IMG/VR virus record: IMGVR_UViG_2671180747_000010
Span: 1 to 12,505 of that record
Length of the DNA: 12,505 nt
Direction: 5' to 3' (one strand)
Source: a virus
Taxonomy: Duplodnaviria; Heunggongvirae; Uroviricota; Caudoviricetes
The translations under genes and the position numbers were made by a program. Below, one piece after another: positions 1 through 12,505 of this stretch. The notes under the pieces are model-generated. The model was given only the letters and a program-made list of their open reading frames with translations, ran no database searches and had not been told where the DNA came from. Numbering within the stretch: position 1 is the stretch's first letter; every line of letters starts with the position of its first letter.

Positions 1-6
1 TCGGGG

Positions 7-31
7 AAAAAAAACCCCGCCAGTGGCGGGG
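7..31 (-). terminator. Intrinsic terminator, tR'-like (minus strand)
   Basis: Perfect 7-bp GC-rich stem CCCCGCC(15-21)/GGCGGGG(25-31) with 3-nt loop; on the minus strand it is followed by an 8-nt T run (plus-strand A8 at 7-14). Confidence 0.55.
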
Positions 32-50
32 ATCTTTTGATAAAAACGAC

Positions 51-74
51 AAAGGCACCATTAAGGTGCCTTTT
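51..74. terminator. Hairpin with flanking T-runs on both strands (possible bidirectional terminator)
   Basis: Stem GGCACC(54-59)/GGTGCC(65-70), 5-nt loop, extended by AAA/TTT pairs; followed by TTTT on the plus strand and TTTGTCGTTTTT on the minus strand. Confidence 0.35.
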
Positions 75-204
75 ACACAGGGCAGCAGGCTTGTCATCAC
101 CTTATTGCTACTCCTGGCTTCCAGTTCGGAAGTCTCACAAGTCCCATCAGGGTACAGCGACAGTATCAGTCAACACTCTATGATTCTGCTGAACAGGCAG
201 TTTC

Positions 205-340
205 GCACTGTACATTATAACCTGTTAAGCCAACAAAAAACCCGCTCGGCGGCGGGGTTTGCTTACTTTGCCATCGCGAACAAAATCTGCAAAATATCAG
301 ATTTACACGGAATATATGCTCTTCAGTTCTATTTTGCAAG
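205..340 (-). promoter_or_regulatory. Candidate late promoter (pR'-like) region downstream of the Q-like gene
   Basis: Two minus-strand candidates: (a) -35 TTGCAA (334-339), 17-bp spacer, -10 TATATT (311-316), overlapping the Q stop; (b) a perfect -10 TATAAT (214-219) with a poor -35, placing a start ~195 nt upstream of the terminators at 7-74. Sequence-only call. Confidence 0.3.
235..257 (-). terminator. Intrinsic terminator-like hairpin after the Q-like gene (minus strand)
   Basis: Stem CCCGC(241-245)/GCGGG(252-256) with 6-nt loop; on the minus strand followed by TTTTTT (plus-strand A6 at 235-240). Confidence 0.4.
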
Positions 341-1012
341 ATATGGTTCTAAATTAATCGACTTTTGCCGTGAACGTACCCGCATTACTGAAATAAGAGC
401 ATCCCTGTCCAGCATCTCTGCACTACCCCGCATAGCCAACCAGTGAGGCCTGTGTGTTTTTGTCCATGTAGATTTAGCAACTCCTATGAACACCGCTAAC
501 TCCTGATGTTCATAGGTCTCACGCCCTGCCAGCTCACTCTTCACATCCTGTGCCGCCAGCCAAATCAGTTTCTTCAGACGATCCAGCGTTTTCCCTGCAA
601 TTTTTCTGGTACCAGCCTGAGCTTTAAACTCACCCCATACCCATTGTGTTATAGTGACCTGATCTTCCCAGCAAACATTTCCACTGTAGCACCACAGTAA
701 CCACGCCTTCTGATGTTCTTCCAGTTCCAGAACGGCACGCCGCCACGATGATGTTGCAAACTCAACCGGACTGACCAGCGCAATTGATGAGCCTTTCGCC
801 AGTGATTGTTTACCCGGGATCGGTTGATTATCCCGCGTGATCATTTTTCCGGTTACCTCATCGCGATAACGAATTTTTTTGCGTCTGTAACGCCCTGTAT
901 CGAACAGGGCATTCTCCTGCCAGGCTTCCAGCTGGCCTTTTGTCGCCCCACTGAGATCCGCAGTGGCAATCATGAGTTGCTCACGAACAAACTGTAAATA
1001 CTGGTTATTCAT
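329..1012 (-). CDS. Phage antitermination protein Q-like (227 aa from ATG at 1012; a GTG at 1018 is also in frame)
   Basis: Position immediately downstream of rusA, with the ATG overlapping the rusA stop (ATGA), and immediately upstream of promoter-like sequence plus terminators. Size is typical of the longer Q families. Assignment is mainly contextual. Confidence 0.5.
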   Translation of the reverse strand: MNNQYLQFVREQLMIATADLSGATKGQLEAWQENALFDTGRYRRKKIRYRDEVTGKMITRDNQPIPGKQSLAKGSSIALVSPVEFATSSWRRAVLELEEHQKAWLLWCYSGNVCWEDQVTITQWVWGEFKAQAGTRKIAGKTLDRLKKLIWLAAQDVKSELAGRETYEHQELAVFIGVAKSTWTKTHRPHWLAMRGSAEMLDRDALISVMRVRSRQKSINLEPYLAK

Positions 1013-1368
1013 GCGCACTCCAGTTCTGTGATTTTTATCCCCAGCCGCCCGCCAGGAACAGGCAGGCCACGCACAATATTGATTTCATCAAACTGCTCAT
1101 CGTCCATTAACAACCCCGCATGCGTAAGCGCATCCAGCGGCGCTTTCAGAATATTGTCCAGGTCACGGCGGCGCTTATCCGGTGGCTCTGCAATAATCCT
1201 GATTACCAGCCTTCCGGACAGGCTTAATTTCAGCCGCTGCTGGTTAACAATAAGCGCCACAGCACGGCGATAGCGCTTTCCCTCCTCCGAGATAAAATAT
1301 GTGCTGCCACGACGACGCCAGTAGGTGTTCACCGTTGGCGGGTAAGGTAAAACCAAATCTATGAGCAT
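1009..1368 (-). CDS. rusA: Crossover junction endodeoxyribonuclease RusA (Holliday junction resolvase), 119 aa
   Basis: Translation MLIDLVLPYPPTVNTYWRRRG...PPDKRRRDLDNILKAPLDALTHAGLL...GGRLGIKITEL aligns along its length with E. coli RusA as I recall it (LPWPPSNNRYY...PDRRRRDLDNLQKA...GGRLELTITE). Strong SD AAGAGGTG upstream. Confidence 0.9.
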   Translation of the reverse strand: MLIDLVLPYPPTVNTYWRRRGSTYFISEEGKRYRRAVALIVNQQRLKLSLSGRLVIRIIAEPPDKRRRDLDNILKAPLDALTHAGLLMDDEQFDEINIVRGLPVPGGRLGIKITELECA

Positions 1369-1380
1369 CAGTCACCTCTT

Positions 1381-2430
1381 TTACCCGAGCACGCCAGTCG
1401 CAAAGGCGTGATCAAGAAAATGAAAAATTAACTCAACCTGGGACCCGTACTTTTTCTCAAACTCCAGCGGGTCAGCATGAAGTTCGTTGTGGTGCTCCCG
1501 GCACAACGGTAGTGTGAAAATATCGTGGGATTTTGTCCCCATACCGCCCTGCCCATGGCCAATCAAGTGATGCGGATCATCAGCTGGCTTTCCACAGCAT
1601 GCACACGGCTGCGTCTTAACCCAGCGCGTGAACTTTTCATTAACCCAGCGACGACGTTTAGGCCGTTTCATGAAAGATTCCGGGGACTCCGGATCAACGG
1701 CGATGCTTACTACCGTCTTTTCCTGTGGCGTGGTTTGTGGCTGGTGGGCGTGAAGCGGTGGCGCTATGTTTTTTGTCCGCTGCTTCAGGATGCTGGTGGC
1801 GGTCTGCTCTCCCGGTATGATGTCGCTCTCACTGTATACGGAGCGAATTTTTTCCACCGGTAATCCCAGCGAACGACGCAATACAGATTCCGGAAGCGCA
1901 TCAGCCACCTGATTGCAGACCGCCCACCAGGATAATTCAGCCAGCGATAATTCACGCTCCTGTGCGCCATTCATTACGTGACGGATGACGTCAATCATCC
2001 AGGCGGCCAGATTCTGTTGAGCAAGTAGCTCCAGTGAATCAGATGTCTGCTCCCGCAGGTGGTTGTCGCAGTGCCAGCACAACACCATCGCGCCGGTACT
2101 GTAACGGTGAATGACGGTTTCGCTGTGATGATAATCGCCGTGTGGCCACTGGCAGGATTTCACGTGACGTAATAACCAGTCAGACAGTACACCAGCGCCA
2201 CCCGCAGCACGGATCACCCGCTCATCGCTGAAAAATGGCAGTAATGATTTATCTTCCGCCAGCGGCTGGCGAACGGCAGGTACAAACCCGGACGGCAGAG
2301 CACGCATGCTTTTCGGTTCCGGCTCCACCAGCACCCTGCCGCAATGAAAAACAGGCAGTGATTCGCGTCCGGGCTTAAGGACCACCAGGCCAAGTTCCGG
2401 CACCAGAACAGGTCGAAGTAATACCCGCAC
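1381..2430 (-). CDS. Phage protein, DUF968/YdfU-like, with C-terminal Cys/His-rich HNH-like motif (349 aa)
   Basis: C-terminus QPCACCGKPADDPHHLIGHGQGGMGTKSHDIFTLPLCREHHNELH is a CxCC...HH...C..HH zinc-finger/HNH-like signature. Size and position upstream of rusA resemble YdfU-type nin-region proteins. GTG start preceded by GGAGG. Confidence 0.7.
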   Translation of the reverse strand: MRVLLRPVLVPELGLVVLKPGRESLPVFHCGRVLVEPEPKSMRALPSGFVPAVRQPLAEDKSLLPFFSDERVIRAAGGAGVLSDWLLRHVKSCQWPHGDYHHSETVIHRYSTGAMVLCWHCDNHLREQTSDSLELLAQQNLAAWMIDVIRHVMNGAQERELSLAELSWWAVCNQVADALPESVLRRSLGLPVEKIRSVYSESDIIPGEQTATSILKQRTKNIAPPLHAHQPQTTPQEKTVVSIAVDPESPESFMKRPKRRRWVNEKFTRWVKTQPCACCGKPADDPHHLIGHGQGGMGTKSHDIFTLPLCREHHNELHADPLEFEKKYGSQVELIFHFLDHAFATGVLG

Positions 2431-2431
2431 G

Positions 2432-2704
2432 TTACCTCCAGATACGTTGCTGGAATGTGCGGGACGGACGCGGTGGACGTTCGGAATAAGGGAGCCTGAC
2501 AGAGATTATCCAGTGACGATAATTGAGGCTGAGGGCTTTCTTAACCTCGTATCCGCGCCTGCGGTAACACTGAATCAGCCATTCGGCCTGTTCTTCAGTG
2601 CATGGAGGATGCTGGTACCAGTGGGTTTTAAATACGTGCGAATGCCGCCCCCGCTTAATGGCCGGGACGGCTTCAGAATTGTGGGATTTTATATGTTGCG
2701 CCAT
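2432..2704 (-). CDS. Hypothetical phage nin-region protein (90 aa from ATG at 2704; longer GTG start at 2722 possible)
   Basis: ORF ends 1 nt before the DUF968 gene start (operon-like). The ATG at 2704 has a GGAG SD 6 nt upstream. No family recognised. Confidence 0.45.
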   Translation of the reverse strand: MAQHIKSHNSEAVPAIKRGRHSHVFKTHWYQHPPCTEEQAEWLIQCYRRRGYEVKKALSLNYRHWIISVRLPYSERPPRPSRTFQQRIWR

Positions 2705-2722
2705 CGGGTTCTCCGGTGACAC

Positions 2723-2876
2723 AGCAGGTGCCAGTTGTTCAGGCTGGCTGGATGATTTTAACCAGAATGCGATAAAAAGTGTATAAGACCATCACATATT
2801 GCATTCATGCAAAATGATTGTTACATAATATTACTTAATAAGTATAGGTTTTACCGTTTTATCATTAGAAGATTGT
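2723..2876 (+). promoter_or_regulatory. AT-rich divergent intergenic region, probable promoter of the PAPS-reductase/ParB-like operon
   Basis: ~150 bp strongly AT-rich between divergently oriented genes. Contains TTGCAT (2799-2804) then a 17-bp spacer and TACATAATA. The exact promoter is not resolvable by eye. Confidence 0.3.
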
Positions 2877-4103
2877 ATGTCAGGAACCATAACAAAAATC
2901 AGCACAGGGGAAAATGTTCTGTCAGCAGCAATCCATCGCATTGAATGGTTGTTCGAAACGTTTAATGAGGTCTGCTTGTCTTTTTCTGGTGGCAAAGACT
3001 CTACTGTGCTTTTCCATCTTGTGGCAGAAGTCGCCAGTAGAAAAAAACGTCGTTTTTCGGTTTTATTCATTGACTGGGAAGCCCAATATCAGTGCACGAT
3101 TAATCATATCCAAAAGATGAGGGAAATGTACCGGCATGTGACAGACAATTTTTACTGGGTAGCGCTTCCTCTGACTACGGTAAATGGCGTCTCTCAGTTT
3201 CAGCCAGAATGGATATGTTGGGAGCCAGGTGTAGAATGGGTTCGTCAGCCACCAGATGACGCTATTACAGATATGTCGTATTTCCCATTTTATCGGTATG
3301 CCATGACGTTTGAAGAATTTGTTCCGGCATTTTCTTCCTGGTTTGCCGGTAACCGATGTGGAGTGGGAATACTAACTGGTGTTCGTGCTGATGAATCGCT
3401 CAATCGCTTTATGGGACTGGTGTCTCAGCGCAAACTGAGATATGCAGATGATAAACCCTGGACCACCGCTTCACCCGATGGTTTTTACTACACCATGTAT
3501 CCATTGTATGACTGGAAAACAAATGATATATGGACGTATAACTCAAGAACCCGCGCCATCTACAATCCCCTGTACGACCTAATGTACCGTGCCGGAGTGT
3601 CGTTACGCAACATGCGTGTTTGTGAGCCCTTTGGCCCGGAACAGCGTAAGGGGCTGTGGCTTTACCATGTTCTGGAGCCGGAAACCTGGGCCAGGATGTG
3701 TGAGCGAGTGTCAGGGGCTGCCAGTGGCGCTCTTTATGCCAATGAAAGCGGTGCCTATTTTGCTCTGCGTAAACGAATCACAAAACCGGCTCATCATACC
3801 TGGCGCAGCTACGCAATGTTCATGCTGGATGTTATGCCAGAAAGAACAGCAGAACATTACCGTAACAAAATTGCAGTCTACCTGCGCTGGTATCAGACGC
3901 GGGGCTTCCCGGATGATATCCCGGATGAACAGGAGAATGACCTGGGGAGCCGGGATATCCCGTCCTGGCGACGTATCTGTAAGACGCTCATAAAGAATGA
4001 CTTCTGGTGCCGGACCCTCTCCTTCAGTCCGAACAAACCCCGGCACTATGAGCGTTATCTGCAACGAATGAAGGAAAGGAGGAAAGAATGGGGGATTCTG
4101 TGA
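2877..4103 (+). CDS. PAPS-reductase-family PP-loop protein (IbrA/YbdN-like; DndC/SspD superfamily), 408 aa
   Basis: N-terminal SFSGGKDS PP-loop ATP-pyrophosphatase motif; length ~406 aa matches YbdN/IbrA. Followed by an overlapping ParB-like gene, as in ybdNM/ibrAB. Confidence 0.85.
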   Translation: MSGTITKISTGENVLSAAIHRIEWLFETFNEVCLSFSGGKDSTVLFHLVAEVASRKKRRFSVLFIDWEAQYQCTINHIQKMREMYRHVTDNFYWVALPLTTVNGVSQFQPEWICWEPGVEWVRQPPDDAITDMSYFPFYRYAMTFEEFVPAFSSWFAGNRCGVGILTGVRADESLNRFMGLVSQRKLRYADDKPWTTASPDGFYYTMYPLYDWKTNDIWTYNSRTRAIYNPLYDLMYRAGVSLRNMRVCEPFGPEQRKGLWLYHVLEPETWARMCERVSGAASGALYANESGAYFALRKRITKPAHHTWRSYAMFMLDVMPERTAEHYRNKIAVYLRWYQTRGFPDDIPDEQENDLGSRDIPSWRRICKTLIKNDFWCRTLSFSPNKPRHYERYLQRMKERRKEWGIL

Positions 4104-4732
4104 CGCCTGAGATGGATGTACTAAGCAACATGATTCGTCAGTACTTCAGTCGGGAACAGCCCGAAGAAGAGTCCATACGAGCCCTTAACCATCTGCGCAG
4201 GGTACTGCATGAAGTCAGTCCTTTTGCACAGGAGCCTGTAGACTGTGTGCTGTGGGTGAAAGCGGATGAGGTGGTAGCCAACGATTATAACCCCAATGTC
4301 ATGGCACCAAGTGAGAAGAAACTGCTGAAGCAGTCACTGGAAAAAGATGGTTTCACACAACCGGTGGTGGTGTCAGAGGAGAAGAATCATTATCTGGTGG
4401 TGGATGGTTTTCATCGTCAGTTATTGGGCAGAGAATCAGTTACAGGAAAACGTCTGAGGGGCTGGCTGCCTGTAGCCTGTATTAATCCAGAGAGAAAAGG
4501 GCAAGCCGCACGCATTGCCGCAACCATTCGACATAACCGGGCTAGGGGGAAACACCAGATAGACTCAGTGTCTGATATTGTAAGAGATCTTTCACGCTTG
4601 GGATGGGCAGATGAACGCATTGGCACTGAGTTGGGTATGGATCAGGATGAAGTACTGAGACTTAAACAAATTAGCGGGCTAACTGAGTTATTTCAGGAAG
4701 TGGATTTCAGCCCGGCATGGACAGTTAAATAG
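4088..4732 (+). CDS. ParB/sulfiredoxin-fold (DGxHR-like) protein, IbrB/YbdM-like, 214 aa
   Basis: VVDGFHRQ motif and an arginine-rich segment (ARIAATIRHNRARG) typical of ParB N-terminal-domain/DndB-like proteins. Start overlaps the upstream gene by 16 nt with an AGGAGG SD (translational coupling). Confidence 0.8.
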   Translation: MGDSVTPEMDVLSNMIRQYFSREQPEEESIRALNHLRRVLHEVSPFAQEPVDCVLWVKADEVVANDYNPNVMAPSEKKLLKQSLEKDGFTQPVVVSEEKNHYLVVDGFHRQLLGRESVTGKRLRGWLPVACINPERKGQAARIAATIRHNRARGKHQIDSVSDIVRDLSRLGWADERIGTELGMDQDEVLRLKQISGLTELFQEVDFSPAWTVK

Positions 4733-4785
4733 CAAGCTCGACTTACTCCCGGCAAGGCAACAAAATGATAACTAATACAACTCAA

Positions 4786-4808
4786 GGGCGATTAATATCG
4801 CCCCTTTT
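4786..4808. terminator. Hairpin between convergent genes (possible bidirectional terminator)
   Basis: GGGCGAT(4786-4792) TAAT ATCGCCC(4797-4803) followed by CTTTT on the plus strand. The T tract is weak. Confidence 0.35.
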
Positions 4809-4897
4809 ACTGCTCAATTTTCGACCGATACATCTACTTGACTCTCGTTTTACTCCCCCTTTTTACCCGATATGGAAATTCCCATATCGTAATGAAT

Positions 4898-5002
4898 TCA
4901 GCTCCCCAGACGATCCATCAAAAGCACGACCAGGCAGTAAACACCCACAACAACAATAACGGCCAGAGCGCCTTCCATTGCCAGTGAGATATCATCCGAC
5001 AT
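4898..5002 (-). CDS. Small hydrophobic peptide (34 aa), predicted single transmembrane helix
   Basis: ATG preceded by AAGGAGG SD. Translation MSDDISLAMEGALAVIVVVGVYCLVVLLMDRLGS. Not in the supplied ORF track (below its size cut-off). Confidence 0.45.
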   Translation of the reverse strand: MSDDISLAMEGALAVIVVVGVYCLVVLLMDRLGS

Positions 5003-5037
5003 ATTCCCTCCTTTGGTGTGAATCCCGGCGAACGTTT

Positions 5038-5121
5038 TTACCCCCACCGACAAATAACATATATTAAAAAAGCGATAACCATAGCAACGCCTGTAATTGC
5101 AAATGCTTCAGGCCAGTTCAT
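5038..5121 (-). CDS. Small hydrophobic peptide (27 aa), predicted single transmembrane helix
   Basis: ATG overlaps the stop of the upstream DUF551 gene (ATGA) and is preceded by AGGAGGTG SD. Translation MNWPEAFAITGVAMVIAFLIYVICRWG. Confidence 0.45.
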   Translation of the reverse strand: MNWPEAFAITGVAMVIAFLIYVICRWG

Positions 5122-5630
5122 TGGCGCACCTCCTGCGGCGGTTCTGGTAGCGGCATCCAGCCGGTTACATTGCGGCTCTGTGTTTCGAAAAATTCATCAC
5201 CATTACGGACTACATCAAAAAACTCACCGTCTCGATATTGCGCATAAAGAACGAATGCGCCATCACATAAAATAATTACGTGCTGACCATCATCCGGCAT
5301 TCGCTCACTACAGCTTATCCAACCATCCGGAGTTACCGGATAGTTGGTTGACGTTTCCGAGATTTCCCGAAAATTATTGGTTGACGACCCCTTATTTTCC
5401 CGAAAGTTTCCAGCCTGAAGCATGGCGGCGCGGTGACACCAGATAATCCAGCCAAGCGCCATATCCCATGCCATGTATTCTCTATCGCCATTTTTTGCTC
5501 TGCGGCGATCTACAGATTCTCCGAAACGCTTCTCCATAAATAATTCATAGGCTGCTCGTTCATCCGATACTGCTGCCAGTGATGCCAGCGCAATCCGTGC
5601 CAGCTCTTCCGCTTCTTCTGCTGGAAGCAC
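5118..5630 (-). CDS. DUF551-type phage protein (170 aa from GTG); likely N-terminally disrupted (see finding)
   Basis: C-terminal DGWISCSERMPDDGQ...GWMPLPEPP resembles the DUF551 signature (W-x-S-x-x-D-x-LP ... GWMPLP). An in-frame upstream ATG at 5705 with SD is cut off by TGA at 5682-5684. Confidence 0.6.
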   Translation of the reverse strand: MLPAEEAEELARIALASLAAVSDERAAYELFMEKRFGESVDRRRAKNGDREYMAWDMALGWIIWCHRAAMLQAGNFRENKGSSTNNFREISETSTNYPVTPDGWISCSERMPDDGQHVIILCDGAFVLYAQYRDGEFFDVVRNGDEFFETQSRNVTGWMPLPEPPQEVRQ

Positions 5631-5977
5631 AACGTTGCTACCCGGTCCGTATGTTTCGCGCCAATGCTGGATTGTCAGCAGTCAATCTTTGGTAATAGTG
5701 GTCATGCCGCGTTTCCTTCTTTCTTATTGTAACCAGGTGAATCATTTGATACCAACGAGGGTTTTAGTGAAAGGAGGTGAAATCACCTGTAAGATACTGA
5801 AATAAAACAGGTGATGTCTGGATGAGCGCTTAAAGTCTATTTGATATCGATTGTGCAATAATTAATCGTTTATTCTAAAATCGGCAAAACTTTTGATACT
5901 GCGATCTCAACTTTTTAAAGCGTTTAAAACTTCATTAAATCTATATGGCAACTAACATACGGGCCAGCCTCGCCAAA

Positions 5978-6508
5978 CTAACCCGCTTTAGATTCTACCG
6001 GATTTGATTGCCTACTTGTCTCGGTTTTTTCCAAAATCTCTCTGACGCAATCGTCTGGCATATCTACAATCATCAACGCAGCCAGGCGCTTCCTGCCTTC
6101 TAGTTGTAATAAATCTTGGTTTTCTTTATTCAGCAGTGTCAGAACCGTCTCTACACCTTTGCGAGCAAGGAGATTGGTTAACTGTTCTCGTTCGTCTTTC
6201 GTAAGGAATGAAAGCATCTGTGTAAGCTGATCTCCCTTATCACCAGAACAACCAAAATTACCATAAATACCAATATCGTTTGGTAATTCACCCTTGCCCT
6301 CTTTAAGCCACTCAAGACTAACGCCTTCACTTTCAGAAATTCGTATAAGGATACTTTCTCTGGGGGCTGGTTGTGTTTGTCCTCCCTTGAAATAGCTGTT
6401 TAATGTGTTGATATTGATTCCCCACGCTCTGGCAGCTGCACTTCTTGAAGGGTAGCGCTTTGTAAGCATTCCAATACGTTCAATAACAGGTTCTTTTCCC
6501 TGCGACAT
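5978..6508 (-). CDS. Mu-like prophage repressor (c-like), HTH DNA-binding protein, 176 aa from ATG at 6508
   Basis: Leftward gene divergent from ner/A/B, as for Mu c. ATG at 6508 has an AAGAGG SD; the track's longer 6583 start lacks one. Putative HTH segment RSAAARAWGININTLNSYFKG; C-terminal part loosely resembles Mu c. Confidence 0.7.
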   Translation of the reverse strand: MSQGKEPVIERIGMLTKRYPSRSAAARAWGININTLNSYFKGGQTQPAPRESILIRISESEGVSLEWLKEGKGELPNDIGIYGNFGCSGDKGDQLTQMLSFLTKDEREQLTNLLARKGVETVLTLLNKENQDLLQLEGRKRLAALMIVDMPDDCVREILEKTETSRQSNPVESKAG

Positions 6509-6590
6509 AAAGATACCTCTTGGTGCTTTTCTAAGGAAAGGTTTCTTTCTATTTATCCAATTGAAAAATAAGGATAAAAGCAAAAATTAG

Positions 6591-6639
6591 CCAAAATACC
6601 AAAAATACCTTGATTTGGTATTTTTGGTGATGCATTATT
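6591..6639. promoter_or_regulatory. Operator-like palindrome overlapping a candidate early promoter (Pe-like) for ner-A-B
   Basis: Perfect 12-bp inverted repeat ACCAAAAATACC (6598-6609) / GGTATTTTTGGT (6617-6628) with a tandem CCAAAATACC copy at 6591-6600. Overlaps -35 TTGATT (6610-6615), 18-bp spacer, TG-extended -10 ATTATT (6634-6639). Confidence 0.45.
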
Positions 6640-6650
6640 TACCCGTACAG

Positions 6651-6670
6651 ATATCCGCACGAATATCCGC
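6651..6670. promoter_or_regulatory. Direct repeat ATATCCGC x2 at 12-bp spacing upstream of ner (possible Ner/IHF-type site)
   Basis: ATATCCGC at 6651-6658 and 6663-6670, between the candidate Pe and the ner SD. Confidence 0.25.
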
Positions 6671-6698
6671 GCGGGTAACTTTTTAGAATAGAGGAAGT

Positions 6699-6947
6699 AT
6701 GAGTAGAAGAGAAGTTTCAGATCACGATTGGCCGCCTGAAATCATCAAGGCGCGCTTACACATGGCTGGCTTATCACTGCGCTCTTTATCTTTAAAGGCT
6801 GGTTACAGCAGGGATTCGCTGAAAAGCGTATTACGTACTCCTTGCCGACCGTATCAGCAAATAATTGCTGATGCTCTTGGGGTATCACCTGAAGAAATCT
6901 GGCCCAGTCGATACCAGGTTAAGAGCTATATGAGAAAGGCGTCATGA
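6699..6947 (+). CDS. ner: Ner-like DNA-binding transcriptional regulator (Mu Ner / Nlp family), 82 aa
   Basis: DWPPEIIKARLHMAGLSLRSLS...IIADALGVSPEEIWPSRYQ matches Mu Ner / E. coli Nlp (DWHPADIIAGLRK...IWPSRY). SD GAGGAAG upstream; located between repressor and transposase. Confidence 0.88.
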   Translation: MSRREVSDHDWPPEIIKARLHMAGLSLRSLSLKAGYSRDSLKSVLRTPCRPYQQIIADALGVSPEEIWPSRYQVKSYMRKAS

Positions 6948-6948
6948 T

Positions 6949-9039
6949 ATGTATGTCATTGCAAAAGAACTGATTGGCGCGCCCGGAATGCCTGCTACAA
7001 CAAAAGGTATTCGCCAGGCATTACAACGTTACGTACAAGGGAAAAGCTGTTGTTCCCGTCGTCGCTCAGGCTCTAAAGCAACTGAATACAGCATCGACTG
7101 TTTACCTGAAGTGACGCAGCAGGCATTACGTGAACGCTACGCCCTGCAACTGATGACGCAAAAAGCCGATGAATCACCGGCTCCGGTGGTGACAAAGGCC
7201 AGACGCTCACCTGCCGTGGTTGATGCGGTGGAGGCATATCGCGGATCACCCCAACTGATGGTCGAACGCCTCAATGCCCTGACTGAAAACCAACGTAAAG
7301 TGGCAGAGGCACGAATAGCGATCGTCAGCGAGGTGCTGAAAATCGCGCAACAACCCGGCTTTAGTTGCGCTAAGGCTATCCGGTTCCTCGTTAACAGCCT
7401 GGCACGATCACAACTGGACGAGCGCATTGTGGCAATGGTTGAGACGGCGAACGCCAAAAAGGGAAACAGCCGCGCGTTGAGTGAAATCACGCTGAAACGC
7501 TGGATTGCGGCCTTTAACAAGGCACAGAACGCCGCTGAACGCCTGCTTTTACTGGCACCGGGTAAACGCCAGGAAATAAAAGCCGAAGATATTAACTGGC
7601 TGCCCGAATTTCTGGCGCAGTATCGCCAGTCAAACGGCCGACCAATGACCGAGGCTTACGAGGATTTTGTTGCTGAATGGCAGCACCGGCACGCTGATGA
7701 GCCTTATATGCTCGATATCATGCCCTCTTATGACACCATTCGCCGCGCAATGAAGAAACTGCCGGAAGTGGTGAAACAAAAAGGCCGGGTAACTGGCAGT
7801 GAATACCGTCAGCTTGAGGGATTCACGCGCCGCGACTGGTCCAGAATGCCGGTGAATTATGTCTGGATTGGTGACGGTCACGGCATGAAGCTGAAATGCG
7901 CGCACCCGGTTCACGGGCGGCCATTCGCACCGGAAGTGACCTTTGTTATCGACGGTGGCACGCGCTTTGTGGTGGGCTGGAGCCTTGACCTGGCTGAAAA
8001 TGTTTTCGCCGTAGCCGGTGCCATACAGCACGGTATTCGCCATCATGGCAAACCGTTTCTGTATTACTCGGATAATGGCTCCGGGGAAACCGCCGACGTC
8101 CTGGATAAGGAGATTGTGGGGATACTGCCACGACTGGGGATTAATCACCCGACAGGGATTGCCGGTAATCCGCAGGGACGGGGCATTATCGAACGGCTTA
8201 ACCGCACATTACCGATGCGCATAGCCCGTAAATACCGCACCTATTTCGGGAAAGGAGCAGATCGCGAGACGTTACGTAAAACCAACCGCGATTTACGCTC
8301 GGCATTCAGTGCCCTGCAACAGGGCAAACGGCTGAACGCCCGGCAGCAGTCAGCGATGCGTGATTTACCGTCCTGGTCTGAACTGATTGATGCCATTCGT
8401 GACGGTGTTGAGTGGTACAACAACCGGCCGCACGATGAATTACCCATGAAGCCGAACGGTAAACATTACAGCCCGGCGGAGTTCAGAAAAAAACGCCTGG
8501 CGGAAGAGGACACGGAAATTGAATGGCTGTCCGATGTGGAATTGCGGGACATGTTCCGGCCGATGGTGGAACGCCCTGTAAGACGCTGTGAAATACGCTG
8601 GCTGAATAATATTTACTACGCGCCCGAGCTGCGTGATGAACATGGCCGCAAAGTGCTTATCAGCTATGACATTCATGATGCCGAACGAATTACCGTGCGT
8701 CGCCTGGATGGCAGCGTGATTTGCGAGGCGGTATGGGACGGCAATAAACGCGAAGCCTTCCCGGTCAGCGCGGAATACTACAAACAGCAGCAGCGTCTTA
8801 AAGGCATGCGTAAACGCGCAGAGGAAAAAATTCGTGATGCCGAGGATGAGGTTATCAACGTGCTGGAGCACAAGCCGCAGGAGCCATGGCTGGAAAACAT
8901 ATACCGCCCTATGGGTAATACGGTGGCCGTTCAGCAGCCAGCGATTGATGATGAACCTGACGAAGAATACGAGCGTAATTTCCAGCGGGGATTACAGCTG
9001 CTTGAAGCGAAATTAAAAGAAAATGACCCGCTGGCCTGA
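6949..9039 (+). CDS. Mu-type DDE transposase (MuA-like), 696 aa
   Basis: Starts 2 nt after the ner stop. Candidate DDE-region motifs VWIGDGHG and YYSDNGSG. C-terminus YRPMGNTVAVQQP...DEEYERNFQRGLQLLE resembles the MuA C-terminus (FRPSGNTERV...DDEYETERDEYLNHSLDILE, from memory). Confidence 0.92.
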   Translation: MYVIAKELIGAPGMPATTKGIRQALQRYVQGKSCCSRRRSGSKATEYSIDCLPEVTQQALRERYALQLMTQKADESPAPVVTKARRSPAVVDAVEAYRGSPQLMVERLNALTENQRKVAEARIAIVSEVLKIAQQPGFSCAKAIRFLVNSLARSQLDERIVAMVETANAKKGNSRALSEITLKRWIAAFNKAQNAAERLLLLAPGKRQEIKAEDINWLPEFLAQYRQSNGRPMTEAYEDFVAEWQHRHADEPYMLDIMPSYDTIRRAMKKLPEVVKQKGRVTGSEYRQLEGFTRRDWSRMPVNYVWIGDGHGMKLKCAHPVHGRPFAPEVTFVIDGGTRFVVGWSLDLAENVFAVAGAIQHGIRHHGKPFLYYSDNGSGETADVLDKEIVGILPRLGINHPTGIAGNPQGRGIIERLNRTLPMRIARKYRTYFGKGADRETLRKTNRDLRSAFSALQQGKRLNARQQSAMRDLPSWSELIDAIRDGVEWYNNRPHDELPMKPNGKHYSPAEFRKKRLAEEDTEIEWLSDVELRDMFRPMVERPVRRCEIRWLNNIYYAPELRDEHGRKVLISYDIHDAERITVRRLDGSVICEAVWDGNKREAFPVSAEYYKQQQRLKGMRKRAEEKIRDAEDEVINVLEHKPQEPWLENIYRPMGNTVAVQQPAIDDEPDEEYERNFQRGLQLLEAKLKENDPLA

Positions 9040-9120
9040 AATAAAAAAATAACCCGAGGGGTAACTCAGGTTATTTGGGTTTCAGTCTCGGAGAATGCTG
9101 TCTCAAGCGAGGTAAATAAT

Positions 9121-10053
9121 ATGACTGATATTAACGATGTAATCAAGACCATAGATGAACTTATTGATGGCGGCGTACTGACGCAGTATGCCATCGCCAG
9201 GGAGGCGGGAATTTCCGACGGCACATTATCGGCTTTCCGCAAAGGGAAATATAAAGGAGACAATGATGCTATAACGGCGGCCATGCTTTCCTGGTATGAA
9301 AACTGGAATAAACAAAGCGCACTGTCCGAGCTGCCACAGTTTGTGGAAACGCAGACAGTCCAGGAGCTGCGCGCACTGTTTCAGGCGGTTCGCCTGATGG
9401 GCTGTATTAACGTCATAGTGGGCGTGCCGGGTGTGGGTAAAACGGCCACCGCCCGTAATTACTGCCAGGAGCAACCGAACACCTGGATGATCACCCTGTC
9501 ACCCGCGCACTCCAGCGTCACGGAGTGTCTGCTGGAGCTGGCAGAGGAACTGGGGATTGATTACACCCGCGCGAACAAAGGGGCATTATCCCGCGCCATC
9601 CGCCGTCGCCTGATGGGAAAGCGCGGACTGGTGATTGTTGATGAGGCTGATCATCTTGGTATTGACGGTCTGGAGCAACTCCGGGCAATCCAGGACGCCA
9701 CAGGGGTCGGGATGGTGCTTATTGGTAACCCAAAGGGGCTGTTTAAAGGCGGACGCCGCGCCGTTGATGATTTATCTCGCCTGTTCAGCCGTCTTGCCCG
9801 TACAAAACAACTACGCAAGGCCAAAAAAGCGGATGTGCTGGCTATTGCCAGGGCATGGGGGATTAGTGGTGAGGCCGAGCTGGCTGTCATGCAGGCTATC
9901 GCTGAAAAACCGGGGGCATTACGCGTTCTGACGCATACGCTTAACCAGGCGTGGATCACCGCCAGCGGTGAAGGTGCGGCACTGACAGAAAAACATATTA
10001 ATGCGGCCTTTAAAGAGGTTTATGCCAACCCTGAATTACTCTCACAGGTGTGA
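9121..10053 (+). CDS. Mu B-like transposition ATPase / target DNA activator, 310 aa
   Basis: Walker A GVPGVGKT. Extensive similarity to Mu B as recalled (GTLSAFRKGKYKGDN vs GTISSFINDKYNGDN; LPQFVETQTV; GLVIVDEADHLG; KKADVLAIA; KPGALRVL). SD GAGGT upstream. Confidence 0.92.
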   Translation: MTDINDVIKTIDELIDGGVLTQYAIAREAGISDGTLSAFRKGKYKGDNDAITAAMLSWYENWNKQSALSELPQFVETQTVQELRALFQAVRLMGCINVIVGVPGVGKTATARNYCQEQPNTWMITLSPAHSSVTECLLELAEELGIDYTRANKGALSRAIRRRLMGKRGLVIVDEADHLGIDGLEQLRAIQDATGVGMVLIGNPKGLFKGGRRAVDDLSRLFSRLARTKQLRKAKKADVLAIARAWGISGEAELAVMQAIAEKPGALRVLTHTLNQAWITASGEGAALTEKHINAAFKEVYANPELLSQV

Positions 10054-10055
10054 TT

Positions 10056-10277
10056 ATGATTGCATTTAATATTCCTGATATTTACGGACGCTTTCACCTG
10101 GTGAATTTCGATAACGTCAAAGCAGTCTCCGTGTCTGACAGTGAAGAATGTGGCGATTTACTTTTTGAATTTAATGATCGCACCAGAATGGCAATATCGG
10201 CAGGACTTGATCGTGAAGGTGCGAAAGAAGCTTACAGCAATATTTGTCGTTTTATCGGTGCAAAACGAATCAGCTAA
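10056..10277 (+). CDS. Small protein in the Mu kil position (73 aa from ATG at 10056)
   Basis: Immediately follows the B stop (GTG at 10050 overlaps it; ATG at 10056 has an AGGTG SD). Size and position match Mu kil, but no sequence-level recognition. Confidence 0.5.
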   Translation: MIAFNIPDIYGRFHLVNFDNVKAVSVSDSEECGDLLFEFNDRTRMAISAGLDREGAKEAYSNICRFIGAKRIS

Positions 10278-10289
10278 ACGAGGTGTTAT

Positions 10290-10922
10290 ATGAATACGCA
10301 GATACAGCAGGAAATCAATGTTCTCCACAGCTTTCGAGAGTTTAACGACAATGGCTGTGAGGTTCGTGATTATATCTATGAATTGATGATCGGTGATGGT
10401 GTGTGTTTTCTGTATATAGACCTGTATCAGTGGTATGCAGACATGCAACTTGATTCCATCAGACGCCGTTTTAATCATGAATGCTTTGATGTGGATGTAT
10501 GGGAAAGCCTGCGCTTTGGTTTTCTGATTATGGATGATTATCGCCAGGGGTGGCGACACGGTTACTCCATTCTTCGTGCAATCATGCGTGGCGAAACCCG
10601 AAAAATTCCGGGGATGGGTAAAGTTAATCGAGGCTTCCTGTCAGAGCTGGCTGCATTGCGCATGAATCCATTACTGATACAACCGGAGTTCCCTATGAAT
10701 TTGTTTGATTCACTGAATAACGCCCGCCGCCTGACTGAACTTGCTGGTGCGGTACTGGAGCGCAGCAAACGCTACCCGCAACGTTTTGCACTGAAAACCA
10801 CGCCGCCGGTAAACGAAGTTAAGGGAACCGGTGAAATTGAAATCACCGTTAAGACCAACGGCCTGCGCCGCCGTGTGAAGGCCACCCGTATAAGCGGATG
10901 CACGGTTTACTGGGAAGTATGA
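10290..10922 (+). CDS. Hypothetical protein of the Mu-like early (semi-essential) region, 210 aa
   Basis: Long ORF co-oriented with the early operon with a GAGGTG SD. No recognisable motifs. Confidence 0.55.
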   Translation: MNTQIQQEINVLHSFREFNDNGCEVRDYIYELMIGDGVCFLYIDLYQWYADMQLDSIRRRFNHECFDVDVWESLRFGFLIMDDYRQGWRHGYSILRAIMRGETRKIPGMGKVNRGFLSELAALRMNPLLIQPEFPMNLFDSLNNARRLTELAGAVLERSKRYPQRFALKTTPPVNEVKGTGEIEITVKTNGLRRRVKATRISGCTVYWEV

Positions 10923-10996
10923 AGTTGCTTCATGGTTCGGCTCTGTCATCAGGTCAGACGCCGGGTCAGTTATCCGAACAAAACGAGGACCAGAGG

Positions 10997-11194
10997 ATGA
11001 GTAAAGTCGTACGCATTATTTTCGAATACAAGGAGCACGTTATCCATAAAAACGCGGATGGAACAGTGCGCATGGGGGTAAGTCTGGACATACGTTCAAC
11101 CGGGATAAAGCAGAAAGGTGATGGACCTGCCATGATTTTTGGGGGGGGGTTATGCTCGCGGAAAGCAGAGACTTTGCTGAACTTGTGGCAATGA
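10997..11194 (+). CDS. Hypothetical early-region protein, probably truncated by a frameshift at the G9 tract (intact reading would be 10997..11271, ~104 aa)
   Basis: ATG at 10997 with SD AGGACCAGAGG. A 9-G homopolymer at 11141-11149 separates it from an open frame that runs to a stop at 11269-11271, 5 nt before gam. Confidence 0.4.
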   Translation: MSKVVRIIFEYKEHVIHKNADGTVRMGVSLDIRSTGIKQKGDGPAMIFGGGLCSRKAETLLNLWQ

Positions 11195-11275
11195 AAGCCA
11201 GTGCGCTCATGAAAGATATGGACATGAGTTCCGGGGTTATTAAAGGTAATGAATTTAATCAGCAGGGGTAATTCC

Positions 11276-11827
11276 ATGAGCAAAGTACGNNNNNNNNNNN
11301 NNNNACGCGTTACAAAATTAAAGGCCGCAGCCGAGGCGGCACCGCAGACCCGTGAAGAGGTCAGCCGCGATATCCGACGCTTTGGGGATATGCAGCGTGA
11401 GGCACTACGCCTGGAAACGGCGATGAATGACGAAGTGGCAGAAATCACCGCCCGTTATACGCCGCAGATTGAAAACCTTAAAAAAGAAATCAAAGTGCTT
11501 TTTAAGGGGATTCATGACTGGTGTAAAACCAACCGCAATGAGCTGACGAACGGCGGTGAAACCAAAACTGCCAATCTGACCACCGGAACGGTGTCATGGC
11601 GGCTGGGAAATCCATCATGCAGCGTCAGTCGTGATGTGGAAGGTGTGATTGAAATGCTGCGTCGTATGGGGCTTGAGCGCTTCATCCGCACGAAAGAGGA
11701 AGTGAATAAGCAAGCTGTCCTGGCAGAGCCGGATGCGGTGAAAGGGATTGCGGGTATTAAGGTGAATAAAGGCGCTGAAAATTTTCATGTCGAGCCTTTT
11801 GAACAGGACGCCGGACTGAATAAATAA
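11276..11827 (+). CDS. gam: Host-nuclease inhibitor Gam (Mu Gam family), ~183 aa, containing a 15-N gap
   Basis: DIRRFGDMQREALRLETAMNDEVAEIT...NELTNGGETKTANLTTGTVSWR...LERFIRTKEEVNK...EPFEQDAG matches Mu Gam as recalled (DIKRIGDLQREASRLETEMNDAIAEIT...DELTNGGKVKTANLVTGDVSWR...LQRFIRTKQEINK...IPFEQEAG). Confidence 0.88.
   Translation: MSKVXXXXXXRVTKLKAAAEAAPQTREEVSRDIRRFGDMQREALRLETAMNDEVAEITARYTPQIENLKKEIKVLFKGIHDWCKTNRNELTNGGETKTANLTTGTVSWRLGNPSCSVSRDVEGVIEMLRRMGLERFIRTKEEVNKQAVLAEPDAVKGIAGIKVNKGAENFHVEPFEQDAGLNK
11290..11304. other. Run of 15 ambiguous bases (N) - assembly/scaffold gap or masked bases inside gam
   Basis: Directly visible in the sequence; true length of the missing segment is unknown. 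Confidence 1.
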
Positions 11828-11911
11828 CACCGCATTAAATCTTTAAATATCACATCGTTTTAATTATGGCGCTCGCGTCAGGGGACTGCTCGCGCCTGAA
11901 TGAGGCATGTC

Positions 11912-12490
11912 ATGAGTATTAAATATCGTTATTTTAAAATGAATGAGAGCGATTCCCGTCATTATCACAGGGAATGGCTTGATTGTGTTGGCAGGGAGCG
12001 CCAGAAATTGATTGATGATTTTCTCAGTAATCAGAATGCCAGAGGGTATTGTTATTCCTGGTATTGTGGGGATTTTTTTGTCAAATCAATACTGGTGCAT
12101 GAGGATGTTGATGTCGGAAGAAATAAACGGGTGTTGTCTGATAAATTTGATGAAGATGGCCGTACTTTATTTTCAGTTAAGCCCGACCGCAGATTCAGAG
12201 AGGGAAAAAAACTGAACAAAGCACTGAATATCTTAAACGAGAAGTTAAAACAGCTTCCGTCATTCAGTACCTGGATGGTTAATAAACTGGACTGCTATTT
12301 TGAGGTTTTTGGTGTCAGCAACGGCCGCACAGTTATGGCGTGCTCTTCTGCCGGGTTCTATGGCGACAAAGGGGCTGTTGTGGTTCGTATTCCTGTCGGT
12401 GAATCAGATAATGCCTTTTCACCTGAAAAGCTGCATCCGTCATTGATGGCAATCAAGCATTCCGAATTCATCGCAATAACGGAGGAATAA
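11912..12490 (+). CDS. Hypothetical protein, AT-rich accessory gene downstream of gam (192 aa from ATG at 11912)
   Basis: ATG at 11912 with GAGG SD 6 nt upstream (the track's start at 11900 lacks one). No recognisable motifs; the gene looks AT-rich by eye relative to the neighbouring A/B/gam genes. Confidence 0.55.
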   Translation: MSIKYRYFKMNESDSRHYHREWLDCVGRERQKLIDDFLSNQNARGYCYSWYCGDFFVKSILVHEDVDVGRNKRVLSDKFDEDGRTLFSVKPDRRFREGKKLNKALNILNEKLKQLPSFSTWMVNKLDCYFEVFGVSNGRTVMACSSAGFYGDKGAVVVRIPVGESDNAFSPEKLHPSLMAIKHSEFIAITEE

Positions 12491-12493
12491 TTC

Positions 12494-12505
12494 ATGATTG
12501 ATGCA
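12494..12505 (+). CDS. 5' end of a further early-region gene (partial, runs off the window)
   Basis: ATG at 12494 preceded by GGAGG SD (12481-12485). Only 4 codons visible. Confidence 0.3.

Follow-up and report, generated by a model that had tools for sequence, protein, structure and literature searches.

Organization of the locus

The stretch of DNA analysed here (the window; 12,505 nt, from IMG/VR virus record IMGVR_UViG_2671180747_000010) falls into two halves. The left half is a lambdoid prophage, with Q, RusA, DUF968, a PAPS-reductase-like/ParB-like pair, and DUF551; the right half consists of the left end of a transposable Mu-like prophage, whose sequence begins at 5728 (TGTAACC...); in Stx1a phage LC727895 the aligned position is annotated as the start of its 'inserted Bacteriophage Mu-like phage'. 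Insertion of Mu-like phages into Stx and other STEC prophages is on record (PMC10132054). The window cannot be equated with the deposited LC727895 sequence itself, since the Mu-like part alone matches it (94–96%) and the lambdoid flank is different. Features of the Mu-like part are as follows.

5978–6583, minus strand: c repressor, first in the Mu-like prophage gene order
6699–6947: ner, after the c repressor
6949–9039: transposase A, after ner
9121–10053: B, after A
11305–11827 (readable part, after a masked run), plus strand: gam (Mu Gam family; Pfam PF07352, E 8e-39; PHROG 491)
11828–11900, plus strand: conserved non-coding post-gam segment, left cassette anchor; 92–97% identical in 232 E. 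coli records, with either allele downstream
11902–11905, plus strand: Shine-Dalgarno GAGG, 6 nt before the ATG at 11912, read from the sequence
11912–12490, plus strand: DUF5420/PHROG 2260 (EaC-family) gene, 192 aa, GC 41.6%, minority allele of a swappable slot
12479–12505, plus strand: right cassette anchor ACGGAGGAATAATTCATGATTGATGCA, comprising the last codons T-E-E-stop and the Shine-Dalgarno GGAGGA (12481–12486) and start of the next gene
12494–12505, plus strand: Mu gp11 homologue (Gp11_C domain protein), start only, running past the window end

Several small early genes, one of them with a Kil domain, lie between B and gam. The 5' end of gam is hidden by a masked run of 15 N at 11290–11304, which according to alignment with loci L001 and L004 stands for about 300 nt; the listed start of the gam ORF at 11249 is therefore an artefact. 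The post-gam segment 11828–11900 is 77% identical to Mu, compared with 64% for gam and 58% for B, and contains an imperfect hairpin at 11868–11896 whose stability does not differ significantly from that of shuffled sequences (z -1.15). The gene that starts with ATGATTGATGCA... carries the Gp11_C domain (PF25754, E 5e-40) in loci L001 and L002. Nothing was found by an Rfam search of the whole window, and no meaningful repeats were found. Around the DUF5420 gene no promoter was found, nor any terminator on its strand; the sole terminator-like match, within gam and on the other strand, is no more than shuffled sequences yield.

The ORF at 11912–12490 is a protein-coding gene

An earlier note on this DNA had proposed a 192-aa ORF here, and it is a real gene according to shuffling, polymorphism, and the AlphaFold2 model described below. 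ORFs of at least 192 aa occurred in none of 5000 shuffles of 11828–12505 (shuffle mean 62 aa, maximum 184 aa), and pN/pS over 8 distinct sequences of the window-type allele is 0.33, a value of relaxed purifying selection, not of positive selection. The ORF is a protein-coding gene under purifying selection. Translation from another in-frame ATG, at 11900, would lengthen the product to 196 aa (four more codons); the start at 11912 is favoured by the GAGG spacing, by the 579-nt RefSeq call in a 98.8% identical prophage, where the gene is named 'DUF5420 family protein', and by the length of homologues (188–192 aa). The stop codon TAA occupies 12488–12490 and the next ATG stands at 12494, which bears out the 4-nt gap read earlier. 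The proposed place in a packed early operon likewise agrees with the lack of promoter or terminator signals and with the position of the gp11 Shine-Dalgarno inside the last codons of the ORF; the DUF5420 gene is translationally linked to the gp11 homologue.

Family membership

The product had been described as free of any recognisable motif, which does not hold: it is a member of Pfam DUF5420 and of PHROG 2260, the family of P22 EaC. Residues 45–189 match DUF5420 (PF17457) on profile positions 41–181 of 184 with 52.2 bits (E 8.5e-14; gathering cut-off 26 bits), and residues 1–192 match PHROG 2260 over its full length (profile 1–192 of 192; E 9.9e-40). P22 EaC matches the same PHROG with E 3.8e-71 and the allele found in O157:H7 Sp18-type prophages (Sp18-type allele) with E 1.4e-71; further members come from SfMu (gp11), Mannheimia phage 3927AP2 (gp11), Vibrio phage H188 (a protein labelled 'EaC'), and Haemophilus phage SuMu (an ORF without annotation). 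A 33-sequence family alignment compared with EaC by hhalign gave a probability of 91.7% (E 7.8e-7, 157 columns), and the H188 protein, 35% identical to EaC, bridges the family and EaC. The grouping with P22 EaC had already been made by PHROGs, and the window protein is a divergent further member.

An exhaustive HMM search (E up to 0.001) returned 237 clusters at the 50% identity level; of the best 150, nearly all are proteins 170–200 aa long with a single matched stretch. No second Pfam domain was found in longer family members, whose additional N-termini are low-complexity or mis-called. Few further proteins came from a third search for homologues, in which the profile comprised 147 sequences. 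Every locus examined for the family is a phage or prophage, and the identified hosts are Enterobacteriaceae, Pasteurellaceae, or Vibrionaceae only. The closest relatives outside E. coli are Salmonella proteins with 46–52% identity. Searches of the literature for 'DUF5420', 'PF17457', and 'phrog_2260' gave no mention and 'EaC' appeared as a gene name only; no experiment or homology tying any family member to a function was found.

SfMu gp11 and Mannheimia phage 3927AP2 gp11 share with the window protein the full-length single-domain match, a size of about 180–192 aa, a place within the early operon of Mu-like phages, and the conserved ends, Y-F-K close to the N-terminus and IKxSEFxA at the C-terminus; the window allele forms a divergent branch, with 24–32% identity to them and a GC content of 0.416 versus 0.46–0.49. 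P22 EaC (211 aa) is a distant homologue, about 19% identical, encoded in the PL operon and adjoining xis. Like the window gene it belongs to an early-left accessory region and its function is not described; it differs in lacking the conserved PD and IKxSE residues and in coming from a lambdoid, non-transposable phage, where it stands beside xis/int and not gam.

Base composition

The ORF had been judged by eye to be more AT-rich than A, B, and gam, and measurement confirmed this: its GC content is 0.416 (GC3 0.425), compared with 0.537 for A, 0.543 for B, and 0.504 for gam; the downstream gp11-like gene has 0.534. The DUF5420 ORF is matched in AT-richness by the c repressor (0.413) and orf75 (0.399), and 8–10% of 579-nt windows are equally low or lower, so that the ORF is no extreme outlier. 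Family members mostly fall below their own phage in GC content (0.46–0.49 in backbones of 0.50–0.54), the window allele being the lowest among the alleles compared. The composition does differ from that of the neighbours, and no match to a housekeeping phage function was found.

An exchangeable slot between gam and gp11

By megablast against 5426 complete E. coli genomes, the entire segment 11828–12505 was found in 9, and its first 73 bases (11828–11900) alone in 231. In the other genomes, e.g., those with O157:H7 Sp18-type prophages, the slot is filled by a 180-aa protein that shares about 25% identity with the window protein (pairwise E 7e-12). In DNA alignments near-identity extends to 11900 and resumes at 12479, with unalignable sequence in between; the right anchor is identical in 4/4 aligned prophages despite the unalignable ORF bodies, and the same arrangement is also present in SfMu and close Mu relatives. 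Occurrence of the alleles in the complete E. coli genomes is as follows.

Sp18-type: 214
Window-type: 9
SfMu-type: 6

The Sp18-type allele (WP_000323215, 180 aa, E. coli O157:H7) occupies exactly the same slot, with the same spacer and gp11 start, and has the same PHROG and the same predicted topology (pLDDT 89.9); it differs from the window allele in being 12 aa shorter, in a smaller second beta-sheet, in its GC content (0.48), in falling below the Pfam threshold, and in being 24 times commoner in complete genomes (214 versus 9). The window carries the rarer and most AT-rich allele.

The same picture emerged from 56 IMG/VR loci. Their Sp18-type backbones encode Gam and gp11 homologues each 92–98% identical to those of the window type, and a slot protein 23–24% identical; either allele is found with different repressor (c)/ner types, and allele type does not follow variants of gam, gp11, B, or the immunity genes. 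Synonymous diversity within the same prophages is 0.053 for the window-type allele, 0.157 for B, and 0.132 for the gp11 homologue, and the low value for the allele fits a recent spread of the cassette across older backbones. Separate acquisition of the gene, as suggested in the earlier note, is supported by the sharp break points and by the disparity between a slot homologue with 23–25% identity and flanking gam and gp11-like genes with 92–98%. No alleles were found on plasmids, and a plasmid origin was rejected for want of any plasmid match. The gene thus behaves as an exchangeable cassette: through recombination at the conserved post-gam spacer and at the gp11 Shine-Dalgarno/start, backbones that are otherwise near-identical have received very different alleles (about 25% identity) or, as in Mu, no gene.

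Phage Mu has gp11 immediately after gam (Mup10), and no DUF5420 homologue is detectable in its first 11 kb. Phages with a Gam 100% identical to that of Mu carry the SfMu-type copy between gam and gp11. The Mu junction ...ACTGAGGAATAAAACATG... resembles a fusion of the SfMu pre-gene Shine-Dalgarno with the gene-ending GAGGAATAA, so that Shine-Dalgarno-like repeats bound the presence/absence polymorphism (loss or gain). Since Mu completes its life cycle without it, the DUF5420 gene is probably accessory and dispensable. The clean cassette boundaries, the allele frequencies, the natural null in Mu, and the lack of a solved structural relative (see below) are what the present analysis adds to the existing family grouping.

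Predicted structure

The AlphaFold2 model, built with 33 relatives, has a mean pLDDT of 91.4 and a pTM of 0.83, and the product is predicted to be a compact alpha/beta protein. Its elements are, in order, a strand (residues 4–9), a long helix (12–40), four strands within 45–90, helices 96–112 and 118–125, four strands within 131–162, a short strand (179–181), and a helix (183–190); the Sp18-type model has the same order of elements, with the smaller second sheet. Foldseek against the PDB found no solved relative (best E 0.067 with TM 0.18; TM at most 0.22), and sequence and profile searches of the PDB returned noise only. A search of BFVD retrieved uncharacterised family members only, among them a 196-residue entry with TM 0.80 to the model, whose length matches the H188 protein. 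The model may thus represent a new fold, an assignment we regard as provisional.

Conservation among 166 relatives is highest for G98 (98%), P161 (95%), and P91 and G148 (83%); K99, S184, E185, and K182 follow with 75–82%. These conserved polar residues (K99, K182, S184, and E185) could form a ligand-binding or active site. No match was found in NCBIfam, and searches of Pfam and the PDB likewise returned no enzyme. As the most conserved positions are mostly Gly and Pro, fusions are lacking, and no enzyme is matched, the protein is probably not an enzyme. The window allele, the Sp18-type allele, and the H188 protein had no match in PADLOC-DB at E up to 1, a collection that models defence and not anti-defence.

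Genomic neighbours of family members

The order Gam, DUF5420, gp11 homologue is that of enteric Mu-like phages; in Pasteurellaceae Mu-like phages the gene lies in the same early operon without adjoining Gam. P22-type prophages have eaC-xis-int, and the PL operon of P22 itself has EaC immediately ahead of xis and int. Neighbour clusters of the EaC branch include Ea22-like proteins, DUF551, C5 and Dam methylases, HNH, pol III theta, and RecT. Among the non-Mu loci, of which a handful of independent ones were examined, the gene of Vibrio phage H188 follows a Cas4-like exonuclease, a helicase, and an RNaseH-like gene; that of metagenomic phage L081 directly follows a Lar-type restriction-alleviation protein; that of metagenomic phage L077 has a Lar-like gene at 2 kb and a ribbon-helix-helix (RHH)-like 65-aa gene 4 nt upstream, and in a close relative of this phage an N6 methylase stands beside the family gene. 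Another metagenomic phage has two tandem family paralogues after a Dam-like methylase; the phages with an N6 or Dam methylase beside the gene are L078 and L079.

Proposed function

Our overall reading of these sequence and context data, offered tentatively and with somewhat less than even confidence, is that the protein works early and without catalysis, by binding a host target. The product (about 22 kDa, pI 8.5) would be a soluble protein with no catalytic signature, made early after induction or infection and acting by binding its target and not by catalysis; a host component would be a more likely target than a phage protein. Two observations point this way. The family spans transposable, lambdoid, and other phages with unrelated replication and integration machinery in related hosts, which suggests a host partner or a generic nucleic-acid structure and not a Mu-specific protein, and allele type does not co-vary with the neighbouring phage genes, which argues for a host-directed target. 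The leading candidate for that target would be a host nuclease, restriction, or other defence function, because of the company the gene keeps (Gam, Lar-like proteins, and methylases) and the arms-race-like replacement of alleles; this narrower proposal is the more doubtful one, and the neighbourhood association with defence-related genes is weak, as early accessory regions hold many kinds of gene. Among the small proteins that phages make early, Mu Gam, Lar, and Ral counteract nucleases or restriction of the host. The DUF5420 protein shares their company and timing (early, non-essential, and host-directed, the last being a prediction here) but has no sequence or fold similarity to them, and the comparison is offered as an analogy, not as a claim of membership.

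Alternatively, the protein might act on lysogenisation, induction, or the host cell cycle, as a modulator of phage development or of the physiology of the host, with no part in anti-defence, a reading that we also consider doubtful. It would suit the position of EaC immediately before xis and int in P22 and the EaC-branch loci, which are mostly eaC-xis-int with Ea22-like neighbours. A precedent exists in the exo-xis region of lambda and Stx phages, whose genes are described as non-essential and as affecting lysogenisation and induction (PMC3824215, PMC6213356, PMC7093339), and the semi-essential region of Mu also holds host-directed modulators, e.g., Kil and GemA. None of the exo-xis proteins studied to date belongs to the DUF5420/EaC family, however; the Mu-like phages have no xis/int, so that the conserved link cannot be to excision; and extreme replacement of alleles, in a backbone that is itself conserved, is a more typical trait of conflict genes or immunity determinants.

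A role as accessory factor in phage DNA metabolism, in which the protein would attach to DNA or its ends and cooperate with Gam or with recombination or replication functions, seems unlikely. It would accord with the place next to gam in enteric Mu-like phages, the position of the H188 copy after genes for a Cas4-like exonuclease, a helicase, and an RNaseH-like protein, the presence of RecT and pol III theta among EaC-branch neighbours, and the mildly basic character of the protein (pI 8.5).

We think it more improbable still that the product is a growth-inhibiting, toxin-like effector, made in the lytic phase only and so harmless to the phage, and kept in check elsewhere by a small RHH partner. 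The proposal draws on the 65-aa RHH-like protein encoded 4 nt upstream of the DUF5420 gene in two metagenomic phages, where both genes form their own divergent two-gene unit in a classic antitoxin-toxin layout, and on the fact that the Mu early region already has a killer, Kil. The two loci are closely related, however, with RHH proteins 89% identical, and hence count as one observation; the partner is absent in Mu-like and P22-like contexts, its Pfam RHH match is 'faint' and it may be a mere regulator, and the DUF5420 protein has no similarity to any toxin family (Pfam, PADLOC, NCBIfam).

An enzyme of the PD-(D/E)XK nuclease or C3-like ADP-ribosyltransferase type is very improbable: the first was suggested by 'PD' at 91–92 and 'E-I-K' at 180–182 in many DUF5420 members and rejected because the window protein has Ala at 180, D92 is poorly conserved, and the fold does not match, and the second by a weak match of the family profile to C3larvin (E 0.036) across the VYRGD motif with the catalytic Arg, rejected because the match is partial (17 bits), the catalytic-Arg column corresponds to K90, which is not conserved, no STS or ExE motif is aligned, and there is again no fold match.

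Implications

DUF5420/EaC proteins might constitute an undescribed fold of early inhibitors of host nuclease, restriction, or immunity functions in Enterobacterales, Pasteurellales, and Vibrionales, with the sharply different alleles at the slot between gam and gp11 and the absence from Mu reflecting a match to different host defence repertoires; we consider this proposal doubtful. If it is true, laboratory Mu, which naturally lacks the gene, would be a ready-made null background. Natural controls are at hand: Mu has no gene, SfMu and the phages with identical Gam have one allele, the O157:H7 Sp18-type prophages another, and the window a third. As all alleles lie between the same conserved junctions, allele swaps would be easy to design.

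The gene is not related to virulence or toxin production, and the understanding of Stx or Mu-like prophages is unchanged by it. Should the protein not act on the host, it would be routine phage "dark matter", and a mosaic early accessory gene would come as no surprise to a phage specialist. Should it do so, a function would be gained for a family (237 clusters at 50% identity) shared by phages of several unrelated kinds, namely Mu-like, P22-like, and Vibrio phages, and a new fold would be added to phage counter-measures.

Borders of the DUF5420 cassette

The spacer that follows gam (11828-11900) is 77% identical to phage Mu, compared with 64% for gam and 58% for B (coding DNA). This non-coding spacer is contained in 232 E. 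coli records, whichever allele lies downstream; at the least, its role is that of a left recombination anchor. One element lies inside it:

11868-11896, imperfect hairpin GGCGC...GCGCC

The hairpin is no more stable than shuffled sequences (z -1.15), and a U-tract is absent from it. The junction between gam and gp11 was compared in Mu (L005, 6326-6423) and SfMu (L006, 3410-4062). In Mu the sequence at this junction, ACTGAGGAATAAAACATG, has the appearance of two pieces joined together: the Shine-Dalgarno sequence preceding the SfMu DUF5420 gene, and GAGGAATAA at the 3' end of that gene. Presence or absence of the gene is thus bounded by short Shine-Dalgarno-like repeats.

Extent of gam

A run of 15 N (11290-11304) replaces about 300 nt of the close relatives, whose counterparts are:

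L001 (close relative), 7179-7477
L004 (close relative), 11650-11948

Under the run lies a hypothetical gene of about 97 aa, together with the opening three codons of gam, so the listed 192-aa "gam" ORF (11249-11827) is chimeric, joining parts of two genes. The true Gam is about 176 aa long, ending at 11827.

Small early genes upstream of gam

In the 210-aa ORF at 10290-10922, the Kil domain (PHROG 2679) is confined to residues 136-210, and the N-terminal 74 residues match another family, PHROG 3690. Since relatives have shorter or separate genes at this position, the ORF may represent either genes fused in frame or a pair of genes called as a single ORF. ORF 10898-11194 matches PHROG 4107 from residue 34 onwards, so that the true start is probably the ATG at 10997. 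Of the 90 positions in that profile, the match takes in no more than 1-50; because the gene at this place in the 96% identical relative measures 273 nt, the window copy may have been shortened by a frameshift.

Junction with the lambdoid prophage

Positions 1-5727 are lambdoid and 5728-12505 Mu-like, the Mu-like prophage being inserted in a lambdoid one. Features at the junction and in the lambdoid part are as follows:

329-1018, Q
1009-1368, RusA
1381-2430, DUF968
2877-4732, overlapping gene pair, PAPS-reductase-like/DUF3440 (408 aa) and ParB-N-like (214 aa)
5118-5630, DUF551
5728, left end of the Mu-like prophage, beginning TGTAACCAGG...

The overlapping pair presumably resembles IbrA/IbrB of E. 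coli. The Stx1a phage LC727895 carries a Mu-like insert 94-96% identical to that of the window, but its lambdoid flank is different.

The DUF5420 gene in non-Mu phages

Across four non-Mu metagenomic loci (L077, 5799-6531; L078, 903-1638; L079, 5440-6543; L081, 2487-3689), the DUF5420 gene occurs in three settings. In two related loci a 65-aa ribbon-helix-helix-like protein is encoded 4 nt upstream of it, in a divergent two-gene unit; elsewhere, two tandem DUF5420 paralogues lie downstream of a Dam-like methylase; in the third setting, the gene immediately follows that of a Lar-type restriction-alleviation protein.
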